From IMG/VR virus record IMGVR_UViG_3300028840_003851: a stretch of DNA of 64,000 bases, one strand, 5' to 3'. The DNA comes from a virus. Shown here one piece after another: positions 9,060-32,575 of this stretch. The notes below the pieces were generated by a model. It worked only from the letters and a program-made list of their open reading frames with translations. It did not search any database and had not been told where the DNA came from. The translations under genes were made by a program, and so were the position numbers. Position 1 is the stretch's first letter, and the number at the start of each line of letters is the position of its first letter.

Positions 9060-9065
9060 AATAAC

Positions 9066-9257: not shown

Positions 9258-9269
9258 GCTTATCTTAAG

Positions 9270-9779: not shown

Positions 9780-9810
9780 GGGTAATGGGAGCTCCCCTAT
9801 GAGAGCGCCC

Positions 9811-9855
9811 CGTCCAAGCTGAGACGTTAAACCAGCTTTTCTTAGCTCCTTAAAA
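9811..9855 (+). repeat. Conserved intergenic module, copy a (truncated)
   Basis: CGTC-CAAGCTGA-GACG hairpin, then TTAAAC, then TTTTCTTAGCTCC. Confidence 0.7.
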
Positions 9856-9892
9856 GTACGCTCAAGAATAGGTAATAAGAATAGTGAAGGAG
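9852..9892 (+). promoter_or_regulatory. Putative phage promoter plus RBS
   Basis: AAAA(9852)...ATAAG(9875); AAGGAG at 9887-9892. Confidence 0.5.
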
Positions 9893-9940
9893 ACCACAGA
9901 CACGTGCAAAGGTTGTGCGCTGCTCTAGTGGTTCAAGAAA

Positions 9941-11113
9941 ATGTCGAACATCACTTCCAACATCACCACCATCACCACCATCAGCACAACCGCAACCATA
10001 ATCAACACCCCGGTGGTAGTCGACCGCCGGGAGGGGGAGGAGGACCGAAGGGTCCTCGAGGTGGTTGGGGACGTAAGGGATGAGGAGGAGATTGAAAATC
10101 TCCTCCTCATTGTGGACGCGTTGATGGAGGGGAGGGAGGAGGTGGTTCCTGCCCTCCTCCCGGAGGGGTGGGAGTACAACGACGGGTACTTCCCACCCCG
10201 TATCGACACCACGTGGGAATCCCCGACCTCCCCGCTCCCCCCTATGGGAGCGGTGAAGGATTACCTGAACGAAATCCGGGTATCCATCCAAAACTATCCC
10301 CCGAGTGATGAGGTTGCCCGGGCCGTAATGGCTTGGGCCGAGACCCTCCCAGAGGGTAGGGGGAGGCGACTGGTGGGGGGAGCCCAAGCGGGCTCCGGGC
10401 ACATAGCCCTACTCGATGGATGGAACGCCTACCAGCGAGAAGGGTGTGACTGGGTGAGCGTAGAGTTCGAGTTCCCTCCCGTCGAGGAGGTAATAGGGGC
10501 TCTGCGCGCCCTGCGTCCCGGGAGGTACGATAGGGAGGAGGTTGCCGTTCTCGGCAATCGGTTCTCCAGGCTACCCTGGGGATCGATTGAGGGGATGCCC
10601 GGATGGTTCATCCAGGACAGGGCAAAAGGGGACTGGTCGTCCCCTTACAGGGAGCGGACATTGTGCCTCCACCGAGTACCGGTAGTGACCATGGAGTACT
10701 GCACCTCCCTGATGCCCTTCAGGACCTTGGAGCTCCAGGTGTTCTCCGTGGAGGAGGGTAAGGCCCTCCGCCAGAGGGAGAAGGAGGAGAACCGCGCCAG
10801 TGCCCGAGAGTACGCAGACTCTAGGGCCCAGGCTAGGGACCTTCTCCTAGCAGGGGCGGAGCTGCAGTACTTTCCCGGGCAGATGGGAGGGGTGCTGTAC
10901 TTTGAGGGCCTGCAAAGGTATGTCTCCGCTCACGGCGCCCTGCGGGGGCTCCTCCCGGATGTCGAGGTGGCAGAGCTGCTGTATAAGGCGGCGCAGGAGG
11001 ACGCACCTCGCTGGATACGACTCCCACGGAAGCCCACTATACCAAAGTGGGTGGGGAAGAAGGCGGGGAGGTCCGCCGAAGCAGACATAGAGGAGGGGCT
11101 GGCTGAGCTCTAA
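9941..11113 (+). CDS. Hypothetical protein (390 aa) with a Thr/Ile low-complexity N-terminus
   Basis: Long ORF with natural composition; no family recognised. Confidence 0.7.
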   Translation: MSNITSNITTITTISTTATIINTPVVVDRREGEEDRRVLEVVGDVRDEEEIENLLLIVDALMEGREEVVPALLPEGWEYNDGYFPPRIDTTWESPTSPLPPMGAVKDYLNEIRVSIQNYPPSDEVARAVMAWAETLPEGRGRRLVGGAQAGSGHIALLDGWNAYQREGCDWVSVEFEFPPVEEVIGALRALRPGRYDREEVAVLGNRFSRLPWGSIEGMPGWFIQDRAKGDWSSPYRERTLCLHRVPVVTMEYCTSLMPFRTLELQVFSVEEGKALRQREKEENRASAREYADSRAQARDLLLAGAELQYFPGQMGGVLYFEGLQRYVSAHGALRGLLPDVEVAELLYKAAQEDAPRWIRLPRKPTIPKWVGKKAGRSAEADIEEGLAEL

Positions 11114-11196
11114 AGGCCAGCCCCTTCCCTCCCCAGTGGTCGTGGCAAAGCCACTGGGGAGACACCGATGTGTCTGGCAAGCACATGGTGTAACCT

Positions 11197-11277
11197 CGTC
11201 CTCAGCTGAAGGACGTTAAGCAGAGCGCACAAGCTCTTCGGCACGGGACCATTAATGGTCCTTTTTAGTACCGTAAA
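11197..11277 (+). repeat. Conserved intergenic module, copy b (three hairpins ending in an intrinsic terminator)
   Basis: CGTCC/GGACG, TTAAGC, GAGC-GCACAA-GCTC, GGACC-ATTAAT-GGTCC-TTTTTAG-TACCGTAAA. Confidence 0.8.
11246..11266 (+). terminator. Intrinsic terminator
   Basis: GGACC/GGTCC stem followed by T5. Confidence 0.65.
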
Positions 11278-11301
11278 ATAATACGTAAAATCGAGCATAA
11301 G
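11275..11301 (+). promoter_or_regulatory. Putative phage promoter, possibly giving a leaderless mRNA
   Basis: AAAA(11275)...ATAAG(11297); ATG 11311 follows 9 nt later with no SD. Confidence 0.45.
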
Positions 11302-11310
11302 AGTAATGGT

Positions 11311-11604
11311 ATGAAATACAACCGCGACTGCAGCGTGTGCCTCAGTGAGAGGCGCAACCCATTCAGTCATGAATGGGACTGCGTCGCGGGTCCAGAGTGC
11401 CCGGAGTGCCATAAGTGCTCCGGGGTAATATTCGACACACAGTACAAGTCGGTAGACGGAAAATACTACTGGCGGGAGTACTATGTCGAGCCCCATGGCC
11501 GCATGGGGAACAGAAGCTACAACGACGACTACCGAGTCGGGTACTTCTGCTCATGCGGCTGGGAGTACTCCAGACCCCGGCGTAGGAAGAAGGATGATGA
11601 GTAA
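11311..11604 (+). CDS. Cys-rich Zn-binding protein (97 aa)
   Basis: CSVC, CPECHKC and CSCG motifs; basic C-terminus. Confidence 0.7.
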   Translation: MKYNRDCSVCLSERRNPFSHEWDCVAGPECPECHKCSGVIFDTQYKSVDGKYYWREYYVEPHGRMGNRSYNDDYRVGYFCSCGWEYSRPRRRKKDDE

Positions 11605-11622
11605 GGGAGCTCTCAAGTCCCA

Positions 11623-11702
11623 CGTCTAAGCTGTGAGACGTTAAACCATGGGCGCAACAGCCCTACCAGCACGGACCTCATGGTCCTTTTTAGCTCCGTA
11701 AA
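11623..11702 (+). repeat. Conserved intergenic module, copy c
   Basis: CGTCT/AGACG, TTAAAC, GGGC-GCAACA-GCCC, GGACC-TCAT-GGTCC-TTTTTAG-CTCCGTAAA. Confidence 0.8.
11673..11691 (+). terminator. Intrinsic terminator
   Basis: GGACC/GGTCC stem followed by T5. Confidence 0.65.
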
Positions 11703-11734
11703 CAGGGTTCTCTCTGCGGTGCTACACTGTATGC

Positions 11735-12022
11735 ATGAAGGACGAGGAGCTGGAGGCCATCAAGGAGCGCCTCAAAGAGACAGACAACAGAGCAGCCTCC
11801 CTAGGGGTCTACTCCCAGACGACGAACGACATGCGCGCCCTCATCCAAGAGATAGAGGTCTTGCGCAGGCGACAAGCCCTGTTAGCTGCTGTCGTAGACG
11901 CTGCAGTAAGACTTTGGTCGGTAGGAGCCGGTCTTCTCCGTACCTCGCTTAAGGACCTGCACGACCGATGGCCCAACTGGCAGAGCGAGACATCCCGCAG
12001 GAGCGGCAAGAAGGAGGACTAG
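11735..12022 (+). CDS. Coiled-coil hypothetical protein (95 aa)
   Basis: Stop abuts the next start (TAG-ATG). Confidence 0.65.
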   Translation: MKDEELEAIKERLKETDNRAASLGVYSQTTNDMRALIQEIEVLRRRQALLAAVVDAAVRLWSVGAGLLRTSLKDLHDRWPNWQSETSRRSGKKED

Positions 12023-12385
12023 ATGGAGGAGAAGCTAGCCGTAGAGCTCATCAAGACCGTCCCCCTAGTAGGAGTTCTGTTCTGCGCGCTAACCCTAATA
12101 TGGAGAAGACTTATTGCTGTTCAGGATAAGCACGACACATACCTTAAGGAGAACGCTGACAAGCTCACTATGCATACAGACAAGCTCCGCGAGGCCATAA
12201 CAAACAATACACACGCCAACCAGAGCGTAGCTAAGGGGCTAGCAGAGCTACGTAGGTCAAACGAGCTGTTGGCGCGAGAGGTGATGGAGCTCCGCCTGGA
12301 GCATAGGTCCCCGTCCACTAGACCCCTTATTGACTCCTCTAGGCCCCCACTAGAGTCGGGACACAGAATCTACACGGAGGAGTGA
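12023..12385 (+). CDS. Single-TM coiled-coil protein (BhlA/UviB holin-like topology)
   Basis: N-terminal TM VPLVGVLFCALTLIW followed by a charged helix. The resemblance to BhlA-type holins is by eye only. Confidence 0.5.
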   Translation: MEEKLAVELIKTVPLVGVLFCALTLIWRRLIAVQDKHDTYLKENADKLTMHTDKLREAITNNTHANQSVAKGLAELRRSNELLAREVMELRLEHRSPSTRPLIDSSRPPLESGHRIYTEE

Positions 12386-12630
12386 TGAAGAGCTTCATCT
12401 ACCTCCTATTTGGGGAGCTGAGCAAAGTAACGCCTGAGGAGAAGAGGCTGCATGACGCTTGGGACAAGCTAGGGGAGGCGAACGACGAGATTAACAATAA
12501 CCTGGATAGACTGGAGGGGGCTATACGTAAGGCCAGGAAGCAGGGCGCCCAGGCTGCGCAGGAGATACTCGATGGAGAAGAGGCCAGGCAAAGAGGAGAG
12601 CAAGACGGAGAATGCGCGAAGGAGAGTTAG
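12382..12630 (+). CDS. Small coiled-coil protein (82 aa)
   Basis: Start overlaps the upstream stop (GTGA); helical heptads. Confidence 0.65.
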   Translation: MMKSFIYLLFGELSKVTPEEKRLHDAWDKLGEANDEINNNLDRLEGAIRKARKQGAQAAQEILDGEEARQRGEQDGECAKES

Positions 12631-13114
12631 GGCCGTCAGCTCTAACATCCAGCTCGCCGCCACCAGCAAAGCAAGCTACTGGTCTGAGCCCATGGCTAAG
12701 CTGGCTGCCGCCTTTGACGAGGTGTGTCACGTATCCTTAGAGGTTACGGACGAGATACGAAGGTCGCAGGAGGTTAACGCCAAGATGGTTGTTCTGGCGC
12801 GTGACCTTACACGTAGGGCACACACAGTGACAATTGCCGTGTGCCTCTTCGTTTTGGCAAACCTTTTCCTGACCGCCCTTCTGTACTACCAATCTGCAAG
12901 GAAGCTAGACGAGATACAGCGGGGACAAGTGGCTAAGAGCCACAGCCACCCGGCTTACCTAACGAGCAGGGACCTACCGCCGCCGCCCCCTACCGTTACT
13001 GTGACCGTAACGGTGAGCAGCAAAGCTCCCCTGAGGCACCCTGTCCGTAGACCTCCTGCTGTAGCCCCCAAGCCTACCGCGTCTTCGCCTAAGCCGACTC
13101 CAATGTTCGAGTGA
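12572..13114 (+). CDS. Membrane protein: coiled coil, one TM, Pro/Thr-rich C-terminus
   Basis: TM VTIAVCLFVLANLFLTALLYY; PPPPPTVTVTVTVSS linker. The true start may be further downstream. Confidence 0.6.
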   Translation: MEKRPGKEESKTENARRRVRAVSSNIQLAATSKASYWSEPMAKLAAAFDEVCHVSLEVTDEIRRSQEVNAKMVVLARDLTRRAHTVTIAVCLFVLANLFLTALLYYQSARKLDEIQRGQVAKSHSHPAYLTSRDLPPPPPTVTVTVTVSSKAPLRHPVRRPPAVAPKPTASSPKPTPMFE

Positions 13115-13123
13115 CAATCGATG

Positions 13124-13197
13124 TGCCCAGCGATAGGGTCGAACTCGCAGCATACCGCTTTTGAGGCGGCCTCCTCTGCCTTTTGGGCTAGCTTGGC
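13124..13197 (-). tRNA. tRNA-Leu(CAA), short variable loop, imperfect T-stem (possibly degenerate)
   Basis: GCCAAGC/GCTGGGC acceptor with one mismatch; D-loop GGCAGA; GCCGC-CTCAAAA-GCGGT anticodon arm; GAG-TTCGACC-CT T-arm with two mismatches; A73. Confidence 0.7.
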
Positions 13198-13273
13198 TGG
13201 TACCGGGAACAAGAGTCGAACTTGCACTGAGCTGGTTCTAAGCCAGCTGCCTCTGCCGTTGGGCTACCCCGGC
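13198..13273 (-). tRNA. tRNA-Leu(TAG), short variable loop, encoded CCA
   Basis: GCCGGGG/TCCCGGT; GCTGG-CTTAGAA-CCAGC; GCAAG-TTCGACT-CTTGT; A73-CCA. Confidence 0.9.
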
Positions 13274-13280
13274 AAAACCT

Positions 13281-13360
13281 TGGGATGCTCCGGGCATCGA
13301 ACCCGGACGATAGACATCATGAATTCTGTTGTGCGTCGTCTACCGGCCCTAGCACATCCC
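13281..13360 (-). pseudogene. tRNA-like element with intact acceptor and T arms but no canonical anticodon arm
   Basis: GGGATGT/GCATCCC-A and TCCGGG-TTCGATG-CCCGGA (7+6 bp); D and anticodon regions do not fold canonically. Confidence 0.55.
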
Positions 13361-13368
13361 TAAGGCAG

Positions 13369-13437
13369 CTGAGTATGAGGGAATCGAACCCCCTTCTTCA
13401 GGTTTGGAGCCTGAGTGCCCACCATGGGCTATGCCCA
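13369..13437 (-). tRNA. tRNA-Trp(CCA), compact 69 nt with an atypical D arm
   Basis: TGGGCAT/ATACTCA-G73; 1-nt connector; GCCC-ATGGT-GGGC D arm; TCAGG-CTCCAAA-CCTGA; GGGGG-TTCGATT-CCCTC. Confidence 0.8.
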
Positions 13438-13636
13438 GTGCTACCCCAAAGTGCCATTTTGGCCCTTTGGGGAGTAGTAAAACCCTGGTTTTGAGTACAG
13501 GACCAGGAACCTACTCCACCCCAGACCTGTTTGCCGTGGACAGCCTTCGGGTCCGGGTACCCGCCATCGATGGGTAATGCTTGGGAGCCAGCTCCGCTGG
13601 ACTTACCTTCACCGCCGTGCAAGCGGCTAGACCCGG
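13438..13636 (-). ncRNA. Candidate structured RNA embedded in the tRNA array
   Basis: Helices CCGC/GCGG, CCAGC/GCTGG, TACCC/GGGTA, GGAGTAG/CTACTCC, CCTGGT/ACCAGG and CCAAAG/CTTTGG in 199 nt. Confidence 0.5.
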
Positions 13637-13718
13637 TGGACAGTGATGGAATCGAACCACGCGCCTCACAGCAGCTGGGTTACAGCCAGCCCAGTCTCCA
13701 AGACTGTATGCACCGTCC
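13637..13718 (-). tRNA. tRNA-Tyr(GTA) with an 8-bp acceptor, 4-bp T stem and long D stem
   Basis: GGACGGTG/CACTGTCC-A73; CAGTC-TTGGA-GACTG; GCTGG-CTGTAAC-CCAGC; long V arm GCT-GTGA-GGC; GTGG-TTCGATT-CCAT. Confidence 0.85.
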
Positions 13719-13724
13719 TAAACG

Positions 13725-13754
13725 ATGAAAGGCCACCCGAGGGCGGCCTTTCAT
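13725..13754. terminator. Strong hairpin (terminator-like on both strands), 6 nt upstream of the tRNA array
   Basis: ATGAAAGGCC(13725-34)/GGCCTTTCAT(13745-54). Confidence 0.65.
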
Positions 13755-13861
13755 TCGCATATGCCTGTATCCCTCGGGCCTACATTGGGGTCCTCCAATA
13801 CTCCTCGAGGTTTGTAAACAGGCTAGTCATTGTCCTCACAATAGCGAAGATGCGAAGGATG

Positions 13862-14230
13862 TCAACCTCTGACATCCTTCCCCACCTTTTTTAGGTACTC
13901 GTTCAGCTTGTCCGGGTCATCAAGGAGCTCTTTGACGTCCTCCTTCTGCTCGTCGGTGACCTTCTTGACCTCCTCCTCGTGCCTCTCCTCGACCTCCTGA
14001 ACCTTCTTATCGTGCTCCTCCTCGGCCTTGCGGACGTCCTCGTCGTGCTTCTCCTTGATGCGAATACGCTCCTTCTCTGCCTCAATCTCCTCCTCTGAGG
14101 GGCCTGATGGCGTAGGAGCTCGCCGCTGGGAAACAGCTGTGATGATACCTACAACGATGCCGACGGGGAACAGGATGTACTTCCAGTACCGCTTGAGCCA
14201 CGCCCACACCTTCTTCAGAAAGAGCATCAT
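13862..14230 (-). CDS. N-terminal TM + charged coiled-coil protein (i-spanin-like topology)
   Basis: WAWLKRYWKYILFPVGIVVGIITAV followed by EEHDKKVQEVEERHEEEV repeats. A 10-bp hairpin (13854-13878) spans the stop codon. Confidence 0.65.
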   Translation of the reverse strand: MMLFLKKVWAWLKRYWKYILFPVGIVVGIITAVSQRRAPTPSGPSEEEIEAEKERIRIKEKHDEDVRKAEEEHDKKVQEVEERHEEEVKKVTDEQKEDVKELLDDPDKLNEYLKKVGKDVRG

Positions 14231-14619
14231 TCATTCTTCTCTGTGGGGTTGGTAGCCGTCGTTAGCTCCTCCTCACTCTTCAGCCCAGCCTTCTTGAGGA
14301 TGAGCATCTTCAGAATCTTGTAGAGCATCGACGACAGGGAGCCAATGACCATCCCATACACCACAGCCACCTGATAGCTCTCGATGCCTGAGGGAAGAAC
14401 AGAGGTACCCTTTAGCGCAGCACCCACACACCCACCAATAGTGATTGGGATGAGGTACAGAAACACCTGATTCCACCACCTAGAGAAGGTTGTCTTGTAG
14501 GGCTTCTCCTTTAGATGTGGTTGAGCTGTCTCTACAATCTTTCGGATGCCCAACGTGATGACGTAGCAGCCAGCCCCAAACAGAGCTAACCAGACTATCT
14601 CTCCTAACAGCTTATCCAC
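14227..14619 (-). CDS. Holin-like membrane protein (3 predicted TM)
   Basis: Three hydrophobic segments and a charged C-terminus; follows the tailspike gene. Confidence 0.55.
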   Translation of the reverse strand: MDKLLGEIVWLALFGAGCYVITLGIRKIVETAQPHLKEKPYKTTFSRWWNQVFLYLIPITIGGCVGAALKGTSVLPSGIESYQVAVVYGMVIGSLSSMLYKILKMLILKKAGLKSEEELTTATNPTEKNE

Positions 14620-14630
14620 GACTACTCCTT

Positions 14631-17600
14631 CTACGGAATTGGGTCACCGTACTCAATCAAAGCTATTCTAGCAAGGTTCCTAAACATAAGCTCCCCGTCT
14701 ATTATCACCTGAGATGATGTTGGAGAGACAAACCCCCACCAGCGAACCAGACCTACGTTAAGCTGGTATGCAGTCGACGAGTCTAAAACCTGTCCTGGGT
14801 AGGGGACGGCCGAAGGTGGTGTCGACTTTATATAGAACGTTATGATTCCATTGTCTGCACCGTCGTACCCACAGTTGTTTCCCACAAGAATACCGCCCAA
14901 AGACGCCCCGCGAACAGCAGCTCCGTTTCTACCGAACAATATCTGTGTATGCGTTAGACCGCTGTTGTTGTCCTTTATCGTATTGTTAGTAATTACGAAA
15001 CAGTCCTTAAGCGCGGCACCTGGTGCGTACCACAACCCATACGAGCTGCAATTATGTATTATATTATCTTGTACACGTACATCTGTAATATACTGACCTC
15101 CAAGCTCCGACACTAGCGCCGCACCCACAAGGCAGTTGTCTATATCGCAGCCACGTATAGTAACTCCGGTGACATCGTCGTGTGCAGGGTCCAAGGATAA
15201 GAACACTCCAAGTCCAGGTACATTCTTGATTAATGAGTCATGAAGCTCGAATCCGTTAGCCTCATCTAGGGTACCAGAGAATATGTGTATAGCCGAACCG
15301 CTACCACCTGTTCCTAGCTGTCTAAACGTACAGTCCTTTAATACTAGACTGCCGTTGCTTACAGCCATCAGAGCAGCAATATCACATATTTCCGCATTAC
15401 CGGTACCGTCTATGACTAACCTAGATATGGACCCATTAGACCCGAACGGGGAATCCCCCGCTATAACCACTCTATAGTCAGGGTCAGCTGCTGCGGGGGC
15501 GAAATCATTAGCTATGTTCTCGATAAATATTCCATCTACGTCGTAAGACTTTGCTCCACCAAGCATGAGGTCACATGCGCTAACGCTGTCTCCCAGACGA
15601 CGTATAGTGCGGAAAAATGAGAGATTATTAATCACTAAATTATCCGCACTGATATAGAATGATGCTACTGTGGAAGATTTTCCTACACCTACCTCGGCGG
15701 CGAAGGTTCCATGAGGTACTGCAGTTGTGTATGTACCTGACTCAAACCCCCACTGTACATCTCGTATAGTTACCTTATTTGGTCTATACCCAGTGCTAGA
15801 GGCTTGCCACCCACCTACATATAGAGGCGCAATTTCGGTGTCTTGTCCGGGACATGTCCATCTACCGCCCTCAATCCTAAGATGGTTCAGTGTAAAAGCT
15901 GATGTCCCGTTAAACCCTCTAAGGTACAGCAGAATACTGTTCTGCGAGGCCCCGAACCAGTTTGCCTCTACTCTACAGCGCACGAACACTAGGTCGTGAA
16001 CAGTGAGTACCGGACCTATAGCAGGATGCTCAATGTCGACAGCCCCTACGTTCTCGCTAAGGTTACCTCCTACAGAGGAGCATCCGAACAACTTTAGCTG
16101 ACAATCTTCAAATACTACGTCGTTTACGTCGGCAGTATCCCCCAATCCAACGAGGTTCGTGCTTATGCGCATAGGAGGGTGCTCACCTGTCATAGTGAAG
16201 AAACACCCTTCTGCCTTTACCCCTGAGGTTACGACACCATCACTGCTTGGACGTATGTGCACTGCAGGACCGTACTGCTGTCTGAGTCGTGAGTCCTTTA
16301 GGTAGCATGCGTAGGTGTTGTAGTTAGTCAGCGTAGGGGCTACTTGAAGTGTTATATCGTACACATAAGACCGCTCTACCTTGACGAAGTTAGAAGCAGA
16401 GATACTCACAGCGCCTGCAACGGTGTTCTGCAGGTACAGGTCTCGTATCACTATACTATTTAGGGATATGTTCCCATTCAGGAAGACAATAGAGGATGTA
16501 CCCATACCCTCCAGCACTAGGTTAGACGGGATAGAGGACGTGTGGAAGGAGTTGTACACACCTTCCTTTACTTGTATGTGCAGTATAGTAGCAGGAGACC
16601 CTAGCCCGCTAAAGGCGGATAGAACCTCCGTGATGGCGGATGCTCCATTGAAGTCTCCAAAGCTGTTTACCCCATCACCCACGGTAACCTTGAACTTGGC
16701 GTTTAATAGCCGCATAAGGCTGGGTCGGATGCCTATTGTGCTTGGGTCAGACTCTATAAGTCTAGGGAACCTTGCTCCGTCAGACGCCAACCCCTCAGTA
16801 AGAGGAACAGGGCGTGGGGAGGCCATCATAAGCGTGTTGACATCTTGAAAACGTATCGTAAAGTCAGACGACCAGCAAGACGGTACAAATCCGCTTGTCT
16901 CCCTTACGCTGAAGATGTTGCTACCGCCTGAGAAGGCTACGTTAAATACCCCTCCATCCACAAAATCTGCGTTAGTATCTACCTCTACATCAATGAAGTT
17001 ATGCCCTATAAACGCTAGGGGATTAGAGCCGGATGGTGTCTCTATCTTAGTGAGCTGTATCGCGTCAACAGCCCCATCCCCTCCAACGCGCCTGAACGCC
17101 TCCAGTAGGACGCGCAAAACCTCTCCAGGTATTAGATGAGCAGACCTGATAGACTCCCCCAACAGCCCACTAAGAGTAGGAGGAGTACCGGTAGATATCC
17201 CAGCAAAGCTAGAGCGTTCTCCGTAGATGACTCTGTACTGAACTCCGGCCGGTATCGGGGTATTGAAGAAGATGCGAGGGTTTGTCTGGAACCCGTTCCC
17301 TACGACAGGCAGACCTCCGCCATCGTCAACAGCGTTAACGTACACCCGGATGCCCGTAGATAGAACCAGCTCGTGCATTGTATTGGGGTCTACGACGCTG
17401 AACAGCCTACCGTGCGTCTCTAGCGTGTCTGGTGTCCCAGCCTCCCCGACGAACACCTCTCCGGTGATGGTAGTGTTGTTGATTCCGAAGAGAGGAGTAC
17501 TATCCCTGTACGTTACCTTGGGGATGCTGCTACTCAGAATGTTGTCTAGGAAGTCTGTGTTCTCTGCTAAAGCCCTATGTGCCCTGTTTCCATACAGAGA

Positions 17601-17780
17601 CTCCGCGTCCTCACCGAAGTCTATGAAGTAGGTCCCAGGGAAGCTACCGCCTGCCTTAGCTCCATCTGCCGGTGCTTGAGAGAACGGTGCTGCCGGGTCG
17701 TTGTTGATGTAGTCGTACCCTACGGGGGGCCAAGGAACAGGTAGGTAGTAGGTCGGCGTGGTTAGTCTGTGAAACGGCAT
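14631..17780 (-). CDS. Tailspike/fibre with a right-handed beta-helix (pectate-lyase-like) domain (1049 aa)
   Basis: N-terminal anchor (NRAHRALAENTDFLD); VTVGDGVNSFGDFNG and IQVKEGVY at the start of the beta-helix; I.DN.I.NC...G rung repeats. Confidence 0.8.
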   Translation of the reverse strand: MPFHRLTTPTYYLPVPWPPVGYDYINNDPAAPFSQAPADGAKAGGSFPGTYFIDFGEDAESLYGNRAHRALAENTDFLDNILSSSIPKVTYRDSTPLFGINNTTITGEVFVGEAGTPDTLETHGRLFSVVDPNTMHELVLSTGIRVYVNAVDDGGGLPVVGNGFQTNPRIFFNTPIPAGVQYRVIYGERSSFAGISTGTPPTLSGLLGESIRSAHLIPGEVLRVLLEAFRRVGGDGAVDAIQLTKIETPSGSNPLAFIGHNFIDVEVDTNADFVDGGVFNVAFSGGSNIFSVRETSGFVPSCWSSDFTIRFQDVNTLMMASPRPVPLTEGLASDGARFPRLIESDPSTIGIRPSLMRLLNAKFKVTVGDGVNSFGDFNGASAITEVLSAFSGLGSPATILHIQVKEGVYNSFHTSSIPSNLVLEGMGTSSIVFLNGNISLNSIVIRDLYLQNTVAGAVSISASNFVKVERSYVYDITLQVAPTLTNYNTYACYLKDSRLRQQYGPAVHIRPSSDGVVTSGVKAEGCFFTMTGEHPPMRISTNLVGLGDTADVNDVVFEDCQLKLFGCSSVGGNLSENVGAVDIEHPAIGPVLTVHDLVFVRCRVEANWFGASQNSILLYLRGFNGTSAFTLNHLRIEGGRWTCPGQDTEIAPLYVGGWQASSTGYRPNKVTIRDVQWGFESGTYTTAVPHGTFAAEVGVGKSSTVASFYISADNLVINNLSFFRTIRRLGDSVSACDLMLGGAKSYDVDGIFIENIANDFAPAAADPDYRVVIAGDSPFGSNGSISRLVIDGTGNAEICDIAALMAVSNGSLVLKDCTFRQLGTGGSGSAIHIFSGTLDEANGFELHDSLIKNVPGLGVFLSLDPAHDDVTGVTIRGCDIDNCLVGAALVSELGGQYITDVRVQDNIIHNCSSYGLWYAPGAALKDCFVITNNTIKDNNSGLTHTQILFGRNGAAVRGASLGGILVGNNCGYDGADNGIITFYIKSTPPSAVPYPGQVLDSSTAYQLNVGLVRWWGFVSPTSSQVIIDGELMFRNLARIALIEYGDPIP

Positions 17781-17789
17781 CCTCGGCTC

Positions 17790-18428
17790 CTAGAACTGGA
17801 AGGTCCAGCGTACCTCAATCTCGATTGCGGAGGTCTTGCTTATTGTATCAACAGTGTCGTACGCAACCATGTACCCCGCGTTGTACTGAAAAGCTGGGTT
17901 TGCTGCAGCCGTGAACAGCCCAAGCTCAGAGATGGGCACGGTGAGGTAGGGCCCATAGCTAATCTCCAGCTGCGTGAATACCCTAAAGAACGTCACTGAC
18001 TGTGGCGTGGGCCATGTAGGAGGGGCGGCTACCTGACCTATCCACTCGTCTGTTCCGATAGGAGGTCCCCCTCCAGGGTCACCGGTGACCCTTACCGGTC
18101 TCTCCAGCTGAGACACCGTAGGTAGCAAGTCTGTCTGGTTGTTCGTACCAGGGTAGTCAGCCAGCAGTGCCCCCGAGTTAGCTGTAGGAAGGGCGAGCTG
18201 CCTTGTACCTCCTATGCCCAGCCCCATGTACTTGATGCGGTCGTCCCTCTGCGTAGTCTCCGGGAAAAAGCTTATGTACGCAATAAGCTCGGCCAGCCAC
18301 TGTCTACCGACATCCAGGAAGATGTTGTGTCCCTCTCTTCGGTCCACTATCTTCCCTCGCTCTCTAGCTACCAGAGTGAGGTTCTGCTTAACCTCGATGT
18401 CATCCTTCAGGTTTATTAGACCCTTCAT
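17790..18428 (-). CDS. Baseplate/fibre-attachment-type structural protein, paralogue 1
   Basis: RERGKIVDRREGHNIFLDVGRQWL...YMGLGIGG...ISELGLF...EIEVRWTFQF. Confidence 0.6.
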   Translation of the reverse strand: MKGLINLKDDIEVKQNLTLVARERGKIVDRREGHNIFLDVGRQWLAELIAYISFFPETTQRDDRIKYMGLGIGGTRQLALPTANSGALLADYPGTNNQTDLLPTVSQLERPVRVTGDPGGGPPIGTDEWIGQVAAPPTWPTPQSVTFFRVFTQLEISYGPYLTVPISELGLFTAAANPAFQYNAGYMVAYDTVDTISKTSAIEIEVRWTFQF

Positions 18429-22915: not shown

Positions 22916-22952
22916 CTTTGACTTTCTTCCTCTACAAGCCTATCTTTTCCTC

Positions 22953-26200: not shown

Positions 26201-27340
26201 GCGCCTTATCGCCCATGCACACGGACCTGTAGCAGAGTAGAACATCTCCTGCTCTGTCACATCTATCTCAGTGGGGGACACGATGGACTCTACCTCAAAG
26301 TCACGGCCGGTTGTAAACGAGCCGGATGCCCCGAAGATTGTAATGTAAAGCCCTGATACCGGTCCGGCTGAGGCTACCGTTGTTAGGTCTACATCCGTTG
26401 TGTAGAACCTCCTAGTTCGGTTAGCCCCCTCTCCATCTGATACCGGTCTACCCGTCGTACCGGAGGCTATGATGTCCCCAAAGCTACCTCCAGTTACGAT
26501 ATCTCGCTGCATCTCAGGGTCGTTGAACCCTACAACGTTAAGTCGTTGTACCTCAGGATACGAGCGAGTAATCTTGGCGGCGATTCCCCTCAGAGACACC
26601 AGAGAACGTTCGGTGAGCTCAGATTGGGCTCTGTACACGTAGTCTGTCGCTGTCTCCTCCTTAAGACCGTCCTGGAACCTCCGTAGGTTCGTTACACCGA
26701 CGGCTGAGGGGGTGTTGGCTACGGACACCAAGGACCTCGGCCCTATGTTGTACGCTGAGCCTGGATTCTCTGCTATTAGGTTGACGTCGAAGTAGTACAG
26801 CCCGTCATCGTCAACGTTGAGAATCATCTCCTCAGCTCGGATGGACTGAGATTCTATGGGGAAGAAGTGCAGCCCGCCCTTGCTAGTGAAAAACTTCTCT
26901 GGCGTCATGCTGACAACCTGGGGCTGGTCAAACAGGATGCGCCCAACACCTTTGGCGTACTCCCCTGTCTCCCTTGTAGAGAAGAGGTTGGCCCCGAGTG
27001 CCTCCGCCTCCTCTGTAGTGAGTGCCCCTGGGTACTTAAACGACTGAGACCCTTGGATGCGCACGCTCTCTCTGACGATAGGGTCCCACAGCAGAGTAAC
27101 GGGCTTGATGAGAAGGTCGGTCAACGCCCCTCCCTCATCAAAGGCTACGTCTGGATACGCCTGCTTCAGCCTGGCCTGCACGAAGGTGGCCATGTCTACC
27201 GTGAAAGGGTCGGTCCCTAAGCGGCGCAGAACACGCTGCACAATCTTAGTGTCGAACGGAGAGCCCTCACTGACATCCAAGCTCGGGTCCCACTCACGTG
27301 CTATCTGGCGAAGGAACGCCTCTAGGTCTCTGACTGCCAT
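23264..27340 (-). CDS. Baseplate J-like (wedge) protein with large insertions (1358 aa)
   Basis: N-terminal FDEGGALTDLLIKP...ALGANLFSTRETGEYAKG; YYFDV.L.AENPGSAYNI; VTNLRRFQDGLKEET, all typical of baseplate J. Confidence 0.8.
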   Translation of the reverse strand: MAVRDLEAFLRQIAREWDPSLDVSEGSPFDTKIVQRVLRRLGTDPFTVDMATFVQARLKQAYPDVAFDEGGALTDLLIKPVTLLWDPIVRESVRIQGSQSFKYPGALTTEEAEALGANLFSTRETGEYAKGVGRILFDQPQVVSMTPEKFFTSKGGLHFFPIESQSIRAEEMILNVDDDGLYYFDVNLIAENPGSAYNIGPRSLVSVANTPSAVGVTNLRRFQDGLKEETATDYVYRAQSELTERSLVSLRGIAAKITRSYPEVQRLNVVGFNDPEMQRDIVTGGSFGDIIASGTTGRPVSDGEGANRTRRFYTTDVDLTTVASAGPVSGLYITIFGASGSFTTGRDFEVESIVSPTEIDVTEQEMFYSATGPCAWAIRRKELTLSGIPGGILYPDSPYGTVTIEPDEIHIGGTYDVYLRATELESTSLVLTEVIDDEPAVSGLSAAEVAPNQVTLTDIVLNATYFEGDSVYTAIEEAGARGYTLQIETGTNAGSYRVLSVTQTVGLSPVLYLTPDLPNPTSGPSRWRLVDELTIELTGPRHTKVSGNDLSKIQGSVYVTTSSGTDFDALGVAEGDVVQILEGQDAGEYTLTADPIAPGFTSLELDAEMTFTETGVSYTVYTPNVAGSIDLPLVRVTSVELLDSGNQPQGTTVPYAKPVDIQSRSFQNPARGVKHDWVDVSLGLVSGSITFPLVGTLFVYNFYFSTVVVTFSGEADIASVVNTLNTMLLPFSSGPVAVELDSTHFGIRPFGNGGRVAITGGTAMTAVFGDTDVRTSCDIRSSNASAGWDSLDPDVDLATGLDVIQVLDGNQVGFYPIPYVVDWTSPLGTADPSKALILAEDTPTLSNATALSPELNVHVQIGARSIGSARMYFLEPTTIEVDSDTYFTASTAYGDVRYLPDPSLSTQLIPPLPGDVPVRDGETTTGSPTLTSLSQDFNLSRVHAGDDLLLLYWPLAGTVVMPSGVPVANASGTTLTYSVDNGPWKTVTFVRDDPALAPTDVSREGIVSQINASFGDDVCSLTGTDTLEFEADMLITISETGTANELILGDIAGTAPPLSFHTAGPNPTGNSVQRSNRSPSYGTYRILSTATTTLQADAPIPIDANFTANYPGPSYPRQSYQILRPGAQRITTTDMGDNEAEAGLYYFDVELVSEGTGDIWNLAADVQMSAEGYRSEGWYLTTEDSNLSFSGVETVKIIVSRTILPDGVDDDPSNAIQITGQNLQVSYDRAPVVDSVQSYISSDIERVVCSSPLARYLSPYFVRMDVTYTGGSKVDVVQPELEDYITKLYPEDTLSSSNVQKIFLDRGATDIDNPLDLIAIVHEADRTVTARRSQDAIGTDSRLCTFIPDVLNIVRDVS

Positions 27341-27994
27341 CTACACCTCCAGGTTGGCCACAGCAGCGCGGCCAGCCATCGACGTCACCTCTACGTTTAC
27401 CACCAAGGCGCCAAGCTGCCTGTTGAAGTTTGCTCCGAGAACCTTTGCGGCCATGAGCCGCTCGTCTCTTGGGATGCCAGGATTCATGCTCTGACGTCTT
27501 ACAATCTGCCTTGTAGCTGTGTCTACGGCTACCACGAACCCACTAACAATGTCCCCTCCTTGGTCCGCCCCAAACGTCTGACCTATAGGCTTCAGAGCGC
27601 TTGCTCCTTTCCCTTTGTCCAGCTTGTCAGAGCCCTTCGTGTTGAGGAGCTCCATCAGGAAAATCTGAATGAGCTTAAGCAGACCGGTCACCATCTGAGG
27701 AGTGCTGCTTAGCCTGAACGTAAGCAGACTCTTCTCCGTAACGGCGAGCTTGCGGGAGACTACGGAGACATCCACCAGTCTATCGCTCTCTAGAACCTCA
27801 GGGACCTGCGCAAGCAGCCTGGTGCGGCTCAGCACCATGAAGTTTGGGCTCTCAACGCCGTTCATCTTGACCTCCGCTACAGAGCGAAAGTCTGCCCCGA
27901 TGATGTCCAACATGGACGGCGGACCAGGCACCAACCGTATGCTGTTAAGCTCTATCTCCTCTTGAGGGAAGACAACCTGAAGGTCTATGCTCAC
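27341..27994 (-). CDS. gp25/GPW-like baseplate wedge protein with an N-terminal IPT-like domain
   Basis: VTGLLKLIQIFLMELLNTKGSD...G...; C-terminal alpha/beta; directly upstream of baseplate J. Confidence 0.65.
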   Translation of the reverse strand: MSIDLQVVFPQEEIELNSIRLVPGPPSMLDIIGADFRSVAEVKMNGVESPNFMVLSRTRLLAQVPEVLESDRLVDVSVVSRKLAVTEKSLLTFRLSSTPQMVTGLLKLIQIFLMELLNTKGSDKLDKGKGASALKPIGQTFGADQGGDIVSGFVVAVDTATRQIVRRQSMNPGIPRDERLMAAKVLGANFNRQLGALVVNVEVTSMAGRAAVANLEV

Positions 27995-28035
27995 ATCTCC
28001 TCCTTGCCACTAACCATAGCATCTTACCAAAAGCC

Positions 28036-28074
28036 AAAAAGAAATAGGCCCGCCGAGGGAGACAAGCGGGCCTA
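28036..28074 (-). terminator. Intrinsic terminator
   Basis: TAGGCCCGC/GCGGGCCTA stem followed by TTTCTTTTT on the minus strand. Confidence 0.65.
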
Positions 28075-28141
28075 GGATGAGAAAGGAGGTGTGTGCTCCT
28101 TTAGAATTAGAAGAACATAACGAGCAGGTCAAGTCTTTTCT

Positions 28142-28375
28142 CTACCGTCTTCTTCCGGTCTCGTACTGTCTACGTACTATGTTCAGGTCCGTGACAAACG
28201 CCTTAGCCTCAGCGAGTGACTGTCTAAGCTCCTTGTTCTCCTCCTCTAGCTCCTTAACCCTCTCCTGACTAAGCTCCAGCATCTCTACCAGAATAGGATG
28301 GTAGTTCTCCGCTCTAGGAGCTACGTCTCGCATGCGACTAACAGCGTCGTTCAGCCTTTCTGTGATGTCTCCCAT
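28142..28375 (-). CDS. Coiled-coil hypothetical protein (77 aa)
   Basis: SD GAGGGG; heptads RVKELEEENKELRQSL. Confidence 0.65.
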   Translation of the reverse strand: MGDITERLNDAVSRMRDVAPRAENYHPILVEMLELSQERVKELEEENKELRQSLAEAKAFVTDLNIVRRQYETGRRR

Positions 28376-29445
28376 ACTTCCCTCAGCCGGTTAACGACAT
28401 CGATGTCAAGACTCCCGTCTGGGGGTAGTCCCTCCTTCTCCTCAAACGCACGTATGGCCGCACTGGTCATCTTCCCTATACGCCCATCCGCCTTACACGG
28501 CCCTAGGTCGTAGCCTAGGTCTATCAGCATCTCCTGTATGCCCTTAGCGTCGTAGAGCTCTCCTGAAGGTCCCTTCCAGTCCTTTAGGTCCTCGGGCAGG
28601 TCTGGGATGTCGATAGAGAACAACCTCTCCAGAACAGGACGTATGGCCTTGTACCTGTGTGGGTATATCGCTATTCGCGGACCGAAGGTGAGCTCATTCA
28701 GCAGCTCAATTAACCACCCCTCGCTGAACGTTCGGTACTTGGTTTTCTGCGCAGCCACCGTTAGATGCTTAGCCGCTCTAACTGGGCTGTTAACCGCGAA
28801 GCTTAGGTACGCAGCTACGAACGCCATGCTCATATCTGTACCTAGCTCAGTAGCAGCTTCTACGGCCTCTCTGGAGTGGTAGAAAGCGTAGTCGTACAGC
28901 CTAGGAGCGATAAACTCTACCTGAGCTCTCTGTGCGCTCTCCTTTCCCCAGAAGGATGCCACTACAGCAGCCCATGTCTTAGCGCGCTCCTCTGATTCAG
29001 AGCCCCAGCTTCCCTGCTTCCCGCTACACCCAAGCATCATCATGCTTTGCTGCTCCTCCGTAGCTACCGGGGACGGAGGCTCCTTAGACCTGTAGTGAAT
29101 GCGCCACCCTCTCGGTCCCTTCACAAAGCTGGCGTCACATAGCTCAAGAGCGGGGGATAGCATACCTGCCAGGCTCTCATCCTTCTCTACGGCGAAACCA
29201 AGTGCCTTGCTCGCGGTGAAGTACCTCTTCTCTGTCACCTGGATGAGTGTGGTAGAGAGAATCTGCCCGTCGTACATGTTGATGGCGTCGTAGGCCCCGC
29301 CCTCAGTGGCTGTAATGACAGCCAGAATCTTGTCAGACAAGCTCGGCTCATCAGGTACAACGTACCGGTGCCTACCCCTAAAGAAGGGCCCCTCGTACCC
29401 GCCATACGCCCCCCAACCAATATCCTTAGTCGAAACTAGCATCAC
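28351..29445 (-). CDS. Endolysin-like protein: lysozyme-fold-like N-terminus + C-terminal peptidoglycan-binding domain
   Basis: C-terminal IQEMLIDLGYDLG...ADGRIGKMTSAAIRAFEEKEGLPPDG matches PG_binding_1; N-terminal TEGGAYDAINMYD has a candidate catalytic Glu. Confidence 0.75.
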   Translation of the reverse strand: MMLVSTKDIGWGAYGGYEGPFFRGRHRYVVPDEPSLSDKILAVITATEGGAYDAINMYDGQILSTTLIQVTEKRYFTASKALGFAVEKDESLAGMLSPALELCDASFVKGPRGWRIHYRSKEPPSPVATEEQQSMMMLGCSGKQGSWGSESEERAKTWAAVVASFWGKESAQRAQVEFIAPRLYDYAFYHSREAVEAATELGTDMSMAFVAAYLSFAVNSPVRAAKHLTVAAQKTKYRTFSEGWLIELLNELTFGPRIAIYPHRYKAIRPVLERLFSIDIPDLPEDLKDWKGPSGELYDAKGIQEMLIDLGYDLGPCKADGRIGKMTSAAIRAFEEKEGLPPDGSLDIDVVNRLREVWETSQKG

Positions 29446-29759
29446 GCATCCTTTGGTGTGTTTACGTTCTCTTCGTCACTTACGCTCGGACCAGAGTACT
29501 CCTCTACATCCTCTGCTGCCGCAAGAACATCTTTGTAGATACGCTCTACGCGCTCCTTCTCATTAGGACGCAGAACTGTACCAGAGCCTTCTATCCTCTC
29601 AATCTGGTCGTCAAGAGCATCCTCGAACGTGTACGCAGTAAAGCTGTTAACCGACTCCCTACCTCTCACAAAAGCGTACGCGTTGTTAAGCGCTCTTCTG
29701 ATGCGTTGACGAACCTCTTGGTTGTCCTGCTCTTGACTGAGCTCTTCCTCTGTCGGCAT
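29442..29759 (-). CDS. Hypothetical acidic protein (105 aa)
   Basis: ATGA overlap with the next gene. Confidence 0.6.
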   Translation of the reverse strand: MPTEEELSQEQDNQEVRQRIRRALNNAYAFVRGRESVNSFTAYTFEDALDDQIERIEGSGTVLRPNEKERVERIYKDVLAAAEDVEEYSGPSVSDEENVNTPKDA

Positions 29760-29815
29760 GTAGAGAGGGTACCACGCGTAGTACCAGCTGGTTCTATAAA
29801 ACGACTTTGGTAGCT

Positions 29816-29845
29816 AAAGAAAAGGCGCCGTACCGTCGGCGCCTT
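29816..29845 (-). terminator. Intrinsic terminator followed by the TTTAGCTACC motif
   Basis: AAGGCGCCG/CGGCGCCTT stem; TTTTCTTT tract on the minus strand. Confidence 0.65.
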
Positions 29846-29849
29846 CTCC

Positions 29850-30080
29850 CTATTCGTAGGACAACCCTAGAGGCGGGTCATACCCTGTCTCCCATGCTCT
29901 TGCCGCTACAGACCTACCTAGCATTGCCTCTGCAGATAGATGCTCCCGCATCTCTGCCCTAAGCGTAGCTGCCAGCTCATCGTACCCTAACTCCCTAAGC
30001 TCACGGTCAGAGTCTAGAGGGTTTACCTTGTACGCCCTACGAAACAGCATCTCTAGCTCCATTCTAATCTTCATACACAC
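29850..30080 (-). CDS. Hypothetical protein (76 aa)
   Basis: SD AAGGA; ends just before the terminator. Confidence 0.6.
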   Translation of the reverse strand: MCMKIRMELEMLFRRAYKVNPLDSDRELRELGYDELAATLRAEMREHLSAEAMLGRSVAARAWETGYDPPLGLSYE

Positions 30081-30910
30081 TCCTTATCTAAAGGGTACAG
30101 CGGACTAGCCCTGAACCGTCTATTGCTTAGCGGTCGAGGGTCGCCTCCTTGTAGGATGGTTAGGATGTCATCCTCCTGCTCTCCGGCTCCCTCTGAGTTC
30201 GGGTAGAACACCTTTGGGTGGTAGAGCACAACCCCGTGAGAGTAGTCGTTGTAGTTAGTTATGTGGGCCTTTGCTTCCTTCTCAAACACGTGGATGGGCT
30301 TGTTGCTCTTGCCGTAGTACGCCCCATGTATCCCGCAGTACTTAAAGCCCCAATCGGCAAGCCACGGGTGGGTGATTAAGCCCTTCTTGTGACCTGTCAC
30401 TGGCTTACCAATCTCGTAGCCTTCCTTCTCCATGTCATCCAGAAACCACTTAGTGTGGATGGGCCAGCGCTCCGTGCTCATCATGGAGGCGTTACGCGGG
30501 AACCTTGGAGGGGCCATCGCCCTGAAGCTCAGCTTCTGCGGGAAGTAGGCTCTGCGGGCATCCTCCATCTCAGGGGTACCTAGAATGAGCCCCCACTCGT
30601 TGGCTATGCGCTGAGCTGTACGAGGGGACATAGGAGTATGAACGAAGTCATCATCAGAGCCGAGACACAGGAAGTCTGGGAGGCTGTAGATGACCATAGG
30701 ACGCCCATCAGGGCGCTGCAGCTCCAAGGGGTACAGGGTCCTCATGAAGCTCGGGATGTTCCCCCTCAGATACTCCTCCGTCAGAAACCTCTCCCGCACT
30801 ATCCCAAAGCTCACTCCCTGGGCTAGCAAGTAGGTAACCATCTGGGAGGCTGCACGAGCCTCCGTCGGGCGTTCAGGCACTGTCGTGAGCTTCATACACG
30901 GGTGGGTCAT
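30071..30910 (-). CDS. Hypothetical protein (279 aa)
   Basis: SD GGAGG/AGGA; globular enzyme-like composition (GHKK, YNDYSHG); family not recognised. Confidence 0.7.
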   Translation of the reverse strand: MTHPCMKLTTVPERPTEARAASQMVTYLLAQGVSFGIVRERFLTEEYLRGNIPSFMRTLYPLELQRPDGRPMVIYSLPDFLCLGSDDDFVHTPMSPRTAQRIANEWGLILGTPEMEDARRAYFPQKLSFRAMAPPRFPRNASMMSTERWPIHTKWFLDDMEKEGYEIGKPVTGHKKGLITHPWLADWGFKYCGIHGAYYGKSNKPIHVFEKEAKAHITNYNDYSHGVVLYHPKVFYPNSEGAGEQEDDILTILQGGDPRPLSNRRFRASPLYPLDKECV

Positions 30911-31160
30911 CGTTCCTCTCCTCCTTCAGCTTGCAATCTACCTTCTTGCTCGTTCCTAGCTCGCGACTCGATATCTCTCGGGCCTCATACCAGGACTCCG
31001 CGTCTACTGTTACCGTACTGTCCGGCTCGTCGCATATCCACCCTATCCAGGGCTTAAGCTTGCGCGCTGGACCTTCCTTCTTAAGCTCCTCGAGACTCTC
31101 CTTCCTCCGTTGCTGCTCCTCTGGTGTTGGCTTTTGCCACCGCTCATCGCACACACGCAC
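30873..31160 (-). CDS. Hypothetical protein (95 aa)
   Basis: SD AGGAGG before GTG. Confidence 0.55.
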   Translation of the reverse strand: MRVCDERWQKPTPEEQQRRKESLEELKKEGPARKLKPWIGWICDEPDSTVTVDAESWYEAREISSRELGTSKKVDCKLKEERNDDPPVYEAHDSA

Positions 31161-31198
31161 ACCTCCTAGCTAGGCGTGGACCAAACGCCTTGTCCTAG

Positions 31199-31239
31199 AA
31201 AAACGGACGAGATTCTAGGATAAGCGATGTGGAAGGAGG
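31199..31239 (+). promoter_or_regulatory. Putative phage promoter plus RBS
   Basis: AAAAA(31199)...ATAAG(31220); AAGGAGG at 31233-31239. Confidence 0.5.
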
Positions 31240-31249
31240 TCTGCAAACC

Positions 31250-31711
31250 ATGTCGACCTGTTCGTGTATAGCTGAGACCGCCTGCGACATCGTCGCAAGC
31301 GGAGACACCTGGGATGACTTCTACGAGGAAGAGCGGGAGCTCTCGAAGGACAGGAGGTGCTGCGAGTGCGGCGAGACCCTGAGGAAGGGGTCAATGGCCT
31401 TCTACACCAGGGGGTGGATGTGGGACAGGGACGAGGAAGGAGAGGAGCTGGAGGGAGAGGAGGACCCGGACACGGTATCTGAGGATTGGACGTGCAAGGG
31501 GTGCCACGCCATCCGAAAGGACCTGTACGGCGGCTGCATAATACTCGGCGAGCTTCGGGAGATGCTCAGCGAGTGCTTGGGCTTTGACTACGTTACCGGT
31601 GAGTACGACGAGGAGGATGAGCCATCAGATGCGGAGAGGGCACGGTACATCAAGGAGAGTGAGGAGAGGCAGAGGAGACTTGAGGAGCTGAGGTACGCAA
31701 AGACCTGCTAG
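31250..31711 (+). CDS. Acidic Zn-binding protein
   Basis: CCECG and CKGC motifs; start moved to ATG 31250, 10 nt after AAGGAGG. Confidence 0.7.
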   Translation: MSTCSCIAETACDIVASGDTWDDFYEEERELSKDRRCCECGETLRKGSMAFYTRGWMWDRDEEGEELEGEEDPDTVSEDWTCKGCHAIRKDLYGGCIILGELREMLSECLGFDYVTGEYDEEDEPSDAERARYIKESEERQRRLEELRYAKTC

Positions 31712-31719
31712 GAGGTAAC

Positions 31720-32028
31720 ATGAGCATAGCGATGCATGGGTACAAGGGCACTCGGGAGTCACTAGAGCTGGTACACATGGATGACTACCCATCCTGGTCC
31801 ACCAGCAACGCTGCCAGGCTGCTGGTACACCTGGGATACACCGGAGATATCTGGAGAGCTCCGGTGTTCTCTGTGGAGGAGCTGCGCGAGGGGATAGAGA
31901 ATGCCCTAGTGAGGGTAACATCGTTCCCTTATGTCAAAGGGGGATACCTAGACAGGAGGTTCAAGGAGATGCGTGAGCACCTCAAGATGCTGGAGTCTGC
32001 GGGCGCGCGCTACGTGAGCTTCGCGTAG
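31720..32028 (+). CDS. Hypothetical protein (102 aa)
   Basis: SD GGAGG; followed by a terminator. Confidence 0.7.
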   Translation: MSIAMHGYKGTRESLELVHMDDYPSWSTSNAARLLVHLGYTGDIWRAPVFSVEELREGIENALVRVTSFPYVKGGYLDRRFKEMREHLKMLESAGARYVSFA

Positions 32029-32035
32029 CAGTGTA

Positions 32036-32061
32036 GGGGAGCGCACGAGCTCCCCTTTTTT
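32036..32061 (+). terminator. Intrinsic terminator; partial copy d of the conserved module
   Basis: GGGGAGC-GCACGA-GCTCCCC-TTTTTT, then AGCTCCC. Confidence 0.75.
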
Positions 32062-32067
32062 AGCTCC

Positions 32068-32550
32068 CTAAGCTCCGGCTGCTAGCTGCGCCTGCCTAGC
32101 TGCGCGAAGCTTGGCTGCCCTCTGGGCCATCTGCGACTCAGCCGCCTGCATCGTGGATGACCCAGCCTGCGACACCGTCTGCTTTGGTATCATGGCAATC
32201 CGGTTCATGGCGGTTAGAGCTCCGGTGGTGTCCCCTCCGGCTCCCCGCAGACCCATGGCAAGCATTGCTGTCGGGTCCCTTATCTCCCCGCCCGTGGCTG
32301 CCTCCGCTGCTCTCCTAAAGCTGGGGTCCTCCATCAGCTTCTTGGCGCGGGTCATGTGCGAAGGAAGGGCGGGAGCCCCTGACGCCAACCTTTGACCCGC
32401 CCTTGTTGGGGGCAGAACCCTGCCTATTGTCTTTGGTTTGGCTACCGATGCGACGCCCCTCGTTAAGAACTTCGGAATAGGCAGGCTCTTGGCCACCTTA
32501 GACATGTAGTCGTGTAGCGACCTGACTAGCTGTAGGGTCTCACCGTCCAT
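32068..32550 (-). CDS. Ala/Gly/Met-rich basic protein, candidate internal virion protein
   Basis: N-terminal LHDYMSKVA motif; low-complexity helical composition. Confidence 0.6.
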   Translation of the reverse strand: MDGETLQLVRSLHDYMSKVAKSLPIPKFLTRGVASVAKPKTIGRVLPPTRAGQRLASGAPALPSHMTRAKKLMEDPSFRRAAEAATGGEIRDPTAMLAMGLRGAGGDTTGALTAMNRIAMIPKQTVSQAGSSTMQAAESQMAQRAAKLRAARQAQLAAGA

Positions 32551-32575
32551 GGCTCTACTTTACCAAAAGGAGCGT

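Follow-up and report, generated by a model that had tools for sequence, protein, structure and literature searches.

The window analyzed here, a stretch of 64,000 nucleotides (nt) from the IMG/VR virus record IMGVR_UViG_3300028840_003851, carries four copies (a, b, c, and d) of a short module at gene ends, all of them on the plus strand and in the same orientation as the adjoining genes. The account that we favor, with modest confidence, is that the four copies form a family of gene-boundary cassettes, in which auxiliary 3′ hairpins (P1 and P2) are followed by an intrinsic terminator (hairpin P3 with a U run) and by the upstream part of the next promoter. We regard the finding as genuine yet mostly ordinary. 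The initial annotation had taken the module for a conserved structured RNA element, and this holds for copies b and c, which covary and fold as three hairpins; the module does not behave as one dedicated RNA device, because its 3′ third is an ordinary terminator with a tail that is shared with unrelated terminators.

The evidence for a maintained structure comes from copies b and c. Each folds as three separate hairpins, P1, P2, and P3, in both minimum-energy and centroid predictions (z ∼ −3.2). A covariance model was first built from b alone, which recovered c at an E value of 2.8e-9 with every pair standard; c was then realigned and a b+c model was built. In the structural alignment, all 14 of the 14 pairs are standard in both copies (100% of cells paired), and two of them are compensatory: one in P1 (C-G in b, U-A in c) and one in P2 (A-U in b, G-C in c), with no one-sided change. 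Both of these exchanges had been noticed from the letters alone and are borne out, the first as the fifth pair of P1, the second as GAGC/GCTC in b and GGGC/GCCC in c. The two copies differ in 25 of 83 aligned columns (∼70% identical), and the differences affect 4 of the 28 stem positions versus 21 of the 55 unpaired positions. When 25 differences were placed at random, all 14 pairs were kept in 0.04% of 200,000 trials. These comparisons support the view that the pairing of P1 and P2 in b and c is kept by selection.

The P1 hairpin with its 3′ flank, described by the pattern CGTCY, AGCTG loop, GACG, and TTAARC, is found at 9811–9832 (a), 11197–11221 (b), and 11623–11646 (c) and nowhere else in the window, with no matches in 100 shuffles; it should be noted that the pattern was derived from the same three copies that it then recovers. 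A scan of the whole window on both strands with the b+c model, with filters off, returned as true copies only the four already listed in the initial annotation: b and c at E ∼ 1e-26, a at 1e-3, and d at 1.2e-3. The next match is the antisense of the palindromic P3 of copy b (11246–11270, E of 0.007), and all others have E > 2.

The 3′ third of the module has the features of an intrinsic terminator. A G+C-rich hairpin followed by a U run lies 3′ of a same-strand gene in b, c, and d, with hairpin energies of −9 to −16 kcal/mol (the hairpin of d at 32035–32056), and P3 with its five U residues was called terminator-like by a terminator scan in b (11245–11262) and c (11673–11686), in agreement with the GGACC..GGTCC hairpin and T-run first described there. 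The block that comes next, a T-run with AG(CT)CC and (G)TAAA, is the best-conserved part across the four copies. To our knowledge, ordinary intrinsic terminators carry no conserved sequence 3′ of the U run. The tail is also found after unrelated hairpins on the minus strand (29843–29809, 45535–45513, and 40316–40283), in which different stems lead into a T-run and then TAGCT(C/A)(C/T); at 40283 an ATG follows at once.

Behind the tail of copies a, b, and c lies a −10-like box, 32–34 nt after the TAG. In b and c the last T of this box stands 7 nt before the A of an ATG (11311 and 11735), and the two messages are therefore predicted to be leaderless. The arrangement ATAAG-N9-ATG occurs at 9055, 9559, and 11297, that is, three times in the islet of small genes around copies a–c, versus 1.06 expected in the whole window. 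In these three copies the tail would double as the upstream part of the next, putative promoter.

The two remaining copies are divergent. Copy a is without P2 and P3, and its weak P1 loses to a competing AAGCUG/CAGCUU hairpin, which would make a marginal terminator at −5.8 kcal/mol. The coordinates and motifs of the three P1 copies stand as first annotated; the intact pairing of copy a does not, its fifth pair being C·A. Copy a looks like a c-type module after loss of P2 and P3, and the P2 deletion may be placed between two ACCA repeats. At the fifth pair (9815, 9822) its 5′ arm is as in b and its 3′ arm as in c, an unfavorable intermediate between the covarying states; the C·A of the plus strand would read G·U on a minus-strand transcript. 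For copy d, the annotated GCACGA-loop hairpin fused to the U tract is confirmed, but it is not all that is kept, for a strong hairpin lies upstream at 32005–32034. The terminator sequence of d matches P2 of copy b, not P3 (shared GAGCGCAC).

Table. Features at the four module copies and in the stretch ahead of copy b
Copy	Feature	Position	Strand	Energy or remark
a	GGGAGCTC directly 3′ of TAA 9777–9779, ahead of the copy	9787..9794	+	8-nt exact match to c
a	P1 (4 bp and C·A mismatch) and TTAAAC	9811..9832	+	−3.7 kcal/mol; 15-nt exact match to c
a	Alternative hairpin AAGCUG/CAGCUU, then UUUCUU	9816..9839	+	minimum-energy fold, −5.8 kcal/mol, z −1.1
a	Tail: T-run, AGCTCC, TTAAAAG	9839..9856	+	sequence
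a	−10-like box AAGAAT within ATAAGAATA	9875..9883	+	32 nt after tail TAG
b	Two further strong hairpins between the stop of the 390-amino-acid gene and the module	11129..11192	+	−22.6 and −13.4 kcal/mol
b	P1 CGTCC/GGACG and TTAAGC	11197..11221	+	−7.6 kcal/mol
b	P2 AGAGC/GCTCT, loop GCACAA	11222..11237	+	−6.5 kcal/mol
b	P3 hairpin and U5, intrinsic terminator	11245..11266	+	−10.0 kcal/mol; pair probability 0.99 in every context tested
b	Tail TTTTTAGTACCGTAAAA	11262..11278	+	sequence
b	−10-like AAGAGT in ATAAGAGTA box and ATG of the 97-amino-acid gene at 11311 (ATAAG-N9-ATG)	11297..11313	+	predicted leaderless; putative start site
c	GGGAGCTC directly 3′ of TAA 11602–11604, ahead of the copy	11605..11612	+	common to a and c
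c	P1 CGTCT/AGACG and TTAAAC	11622..11646	+	−5.8 kcal/mol
c	P2 GGGC/GCCC, loop GCAACA	11650..11663	+	−8.1 kcal/mol
c	P3 hairpin and U5, intrinsic terminator	11673..11691	+	−9.1 kcal/mol
c	Tail TTTTTAGCTCCGTAAAC	11687..11703	+	sequence
c	−10-like TACACT; ATG at 11735	11723..11737	+	putative, from sequence
d	13-bp hairpin with AGCU tip, spanning the TAG stop 32026–32028	32005..32034	+	−16.3 kcal/mol; aligns to P1, all pairs standard
d	P2-like terminator GGGGAGC/GCTCCCC, loop GCACGA, U6, tail AGCTCCCTAAGC	32035..32075	+	fold, sequence

Searches beyond the window gave a consistent picture. Exact patterns found neither a homologous module nor the tail in IMG/VR; a scan of metagenome contigs gave three chance-like matches in unrelated contexts, and blastn against cultured phages found neither the module nor the tail. 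Five related phage records gave no match to the covariance model, and in their genomes the motif TTTTAGCTMC is nearly absent as well (0–1 copy each). Rfam run over the window at gathering thresholds gave tRNAs only, with no match at the module, and over 9000–12000 at E values up to 5 it gave only spurious microRNA and small-RNA matches far below threshold. Because the five related records and the public collections are without the module, it can be called conserved only inside this phage.

We propose that each copy marks the place where one very small transcription unit gives way to another, within strain-specific accessory islets of a large, uncultured phage. Transcription of the upstream unit would pass P1 and P2 and halt at P3 with its U run, and the RNA set free would have two or three hairpins in a row at its 3′ end. 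Most likely, P1 and P2 are plain 3′-end structure, which would shield the RNA from 3′ exonucleases and would prevent wrong pairing between the terminator stem, a short one of 5 bp, and the sequence ahead of it; stabilization or insulation of the 3′ end is, we infer, the simplest role for them. In a, b, and c, the T-run, AGCTCC, and GTAAA would then supply the upstream portion of the promoter that follows, with AAGAAT, AAGAGT, or TACACT as the −10-like element. The likeness of the four copies would come from common descent through duplication, recombination, and deletion, with a shuffling such as that of the promoter-early stem-loop (PeSL) cassettes compared below.

Several observations weigh against this account. 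The covariation comes from two full copies only, in a structure-guided alignment, and copy a keeps the conserved sequences yet breaks the fifth P1 pair. The AGCUG loop and the 15-nt TGAGACGTTAAACCA are kept more strongly than a generic hairpin needs. A canonical −35 box was not found at the modules, where a sigma-70 scan finds no promoter either, and in copy d, as at 40283, the tail stands where it cannot be followed by a promoter; it may therefore be a part of termination as well as, or instead of, initiation. In copy c, finally, a long-range helix competes with the P3 arm and the U run and displaces the terminator hairpin in most contexts. In the equilibrium folds of this copy with 60–300 nt of upstream context, the last purine-rich codons, AGGAAGAAGGAUGAUGAG (11584–11604), pair with 11680–11691; no competing long-range helix was seen against P3 in the equilibrium folds of copy b. 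The helix of copy c may either make termination depend on translation or reflect an artefact of folding at equilibrium.

In a different explanation, P1 and P2 are specific RNA recognition sites for a trans-acting factor: either a phage protein would allow RNA polymerase to pass each cassette terminator (nut-like), or would cut or stabilize the message, or P1-P2-P3-U5 would be set free as sibling small RNAs from 3′ untranslated regions that share an AGCUG or GUUAARC seed. We consider this unlikely; it keeps some weight because AGCUG and GACGUUAARC are strongly conserved. In a, b, and c the unpaired AGCUG, GACGUUAA, and GCAC are the same, whereas neighboring loop and linker bases vary, but recent common descent, notably of a with c, would also explain the conserved stretches. 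The order of gene, hairpins, and terminator is that of lambda cro–nutR–tR1, but there is no boxA, and a P2 of 4 bp with a 6-nt loop is not boxB-like. Hfq-type small RNAs are similar in having three stem-loops, a single-stranded stretch rich in A and U, and a U tail, but even the permissive Rfam search brought no match. A neighboring 97-amino-acid Cys-rich protein ending in RPRRRKK would suit the explanation, but a Pfam scan of ten plus-strand open reading frames (ORFs) of the islet and protein look-ups found no candidate factor, and there are just three or four copies, all in one phage. The more particular proposal that P1, TTAARC, and P2 make up a phage-specific RNA signal for a factor encoded elsewhere in the ∼178-kb genome, be it a nut-like site before each cassette terminator or a set of shared-seed small RNAs, is a shade more doubtful. 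If the nut-like form were true, the array would switch from separate units to one read-through transcript.

P1 and P2 might also have no function of their own, as the leftover of a recent duplication of one intergenic segment in which only terminator and promoter matter. The module occurs in this phage only, hairpins are unusually frequent throughout the islet, and parts are evidently dispensable, given that a is without P2 and P3 and mismatched in P1 and that d is without P3. Against this, the ∼30% of columns that separate b and c have not broken a single pair, and both stem changes are compensatory; because of this covariation we judge a neutral remnant improbable.

A role at the level of DNA, as a recombination or mobility site (an integron attC or a repetitive extragenic palindromic [REP] hairpin) or as an operator-type palindrome, is very improbable. 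In its favor, the cassettes hold one gene each and are arrayed with a folded element behind every one, GTTAAAC and GTTAAGC fit the attC R′ core GTTRRRY, and the 6-bp inverted repeats GGAGCT/AGCTCC lie around copies a and c. Against it, copies a and c have no inverse core RYYYAAC 5′ of P1, and that of b is imperfect; R′ would overlap the stem, which is unlike the geometry of attC; ten plus-strand islet ORFs matched no Pfam family and hence no recombinase; every cassette has its own putative promoter; and the compensatory changes favor strand pairing over a half-site reading. The attC, nut, and REP readings were all rejected on their defining features.

Some simpler signals were also considered. 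GAGCTC, which had been noted at or just after the three gene ends, does occur there (9789, 11105, and 11607), and in addition at 32047 inside copy d; it is not distinctive, as there are nine copies in 4.2 kb of this region and the copy-b site lies within coding sequence. AGCT and GAGCTC, both common in the genome, were ruled out as special motifs. Generic AGCTG-loop hairpins were likewise ruled out as a signal, the 82 observed versus 58 in shuffles being too small an enrichment. In a 111-nt fold of copy c, GGGAGCTC at 11605..11612 pairs with AGCUCC at 11692–11697.

Returning to the gene-boundary cassettes, copies a, b, and c lie in a plus-strand islet (8978–13861) of about five mini-units that abuts a minus-strand tRNA array. 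In related phages (SNF2 protein of 74% and 63% identity) the SNF2 gene stands directly after the homologues of genes 13862–14619, the gene 13862–14230 among these, and the islet is therefore an insertion. By a codon model trained on the window's long genes, the 390-amino-acid ORF and the ORFs of 11735–13114 are normal and the 97-amino-acid ORF is borderline, whereas the plus-strand ORFs 8976–9206, 9280–9576, and 9574–9779 have no coding signal. The unit that ends in copy a may for this reason be noncoding; of the three plus-strand genes thought to precede the copies, two are upheld and one is doubtful.

The islet proteins are orphans. A search of 5.8 billion proteins found no relative for the 390-amino-acid protein, and one of IMG/VR found none for any of the three islet proteins that were tested; the Pfam scan matched no family in any of its ten ORFs, and Atlas look-ups of the 390- and 97-amino-acid proteins gave no usable function. 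The two small Cys-rich ORFs that precede a and c were rejected as paralogs, since BLASTP gave no alignment between them. As two extra hairpins precede module b, the transcript of the 390-amino-acid gene would end in five; the two have similar GGCAA(A)G tips.

Two conserved genes with homologues in relatives, 28351–29445 and 32576–35641, flank copy d. Their spacing is 3.1 kb here, 8.1 kb in the related genome G003, and 19.7 kb in the related genome G001, and this marks 28351–35641 as a second variable region, holding copy d. Across the window as a whole, GATC is nearly absent (2 versus ∼208 expected from trinucleotides) and AATT is low (22 versus 53 expected); the scarcity of GATC suggests pressure from a GATC-specific host restriction system.

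The practical value of the module is modest and lies in improved annotation of operons and transcripts in this phage group, and in candidate terminator and promoter parts. With respect to known systems, in integrons, too, every single-gene cassette is followed by a folded element, the attC site, and of the attC core sites, RYYYAAC and GTTRRRY, the second is matched by GTTAARC in a, b, and c; the module differs from attC sites in having no conserved inverse core, in its geometry, in the putative promoters of its cassettes, and in that no integrase was seen. In lambda the order is cro, nutR, and tR1, and nut consists of boxA and boxB, the latter with 5 bp and a GNRA-like pentaloop. The module resembles nut as a small hairpin element between a gene end and the next terminator; it differs in that it is repeated before each terminator, in a P2 of 4–5 bp with a 6-nt loop, in having no boxA consensus (GCTCTT is present only in b), and in that no N-like protein was found. 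As to ordinary intrinsic terminators, P3 of b and c and the hairpin of d are like them in their G+C-rich stems, followed by five or six U residues after a same-strand stop codon, and unlike them in the conserved TAGCT(C/A)CC tail after the U run and the two conserved hairpins upstream.

The closest known analogue is the PeSL of the T4-type phages, a conserved promoter and stem-loop terminator cassette of ∼100 bp (Arbiol et al. 2010, PMC2839356; Comeau et al. 2014, PMC4122927). PeSLs border orphan genes in hyperplastic regions, and it is through them that these genes are shuffled (PMC2839356, PMC4122927). The module is likewise an intergenic unit of ∼100 bp that joins a stem-loop terminator, an A/T-rich tract, and a putative promoter, and this composite is repeated at several sites, with four copies in all and a −10-like box behind a, b, and c. 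Like the PeSLs, it recurs from one small orphan gene to the next in variable regions missing from close relatives: the islet is absent from relatives, and the spacing around copy d varies. In both systems, too, the sequence varies between phage groups. The differences are that the phage is not T4-type and that the sigma-70 early promoter (−35, N17, −10; TTGACA-N17-TATAAT) is not present; here the −10-like box is AAGART or TACACT, with the ATG 5–7 nt after it, and the messages are predicted to be leaderless, with no Shine-Dalgarno sequence. The stem-loops also stand upstream of the whole promoter, and two extra covarying hairpins, P1 and P2, precede the terminator. The cassettes described here would extend beyond the T4-type phages the idea behind PeSLs, namely that the accessory genes of phages move about in small units, each set between copies of a conserved terminator/promoter cassette; they also add a pair of covarying 3′ hairpins and a conserved tail after the U run, which is absent from ordinary terminators.

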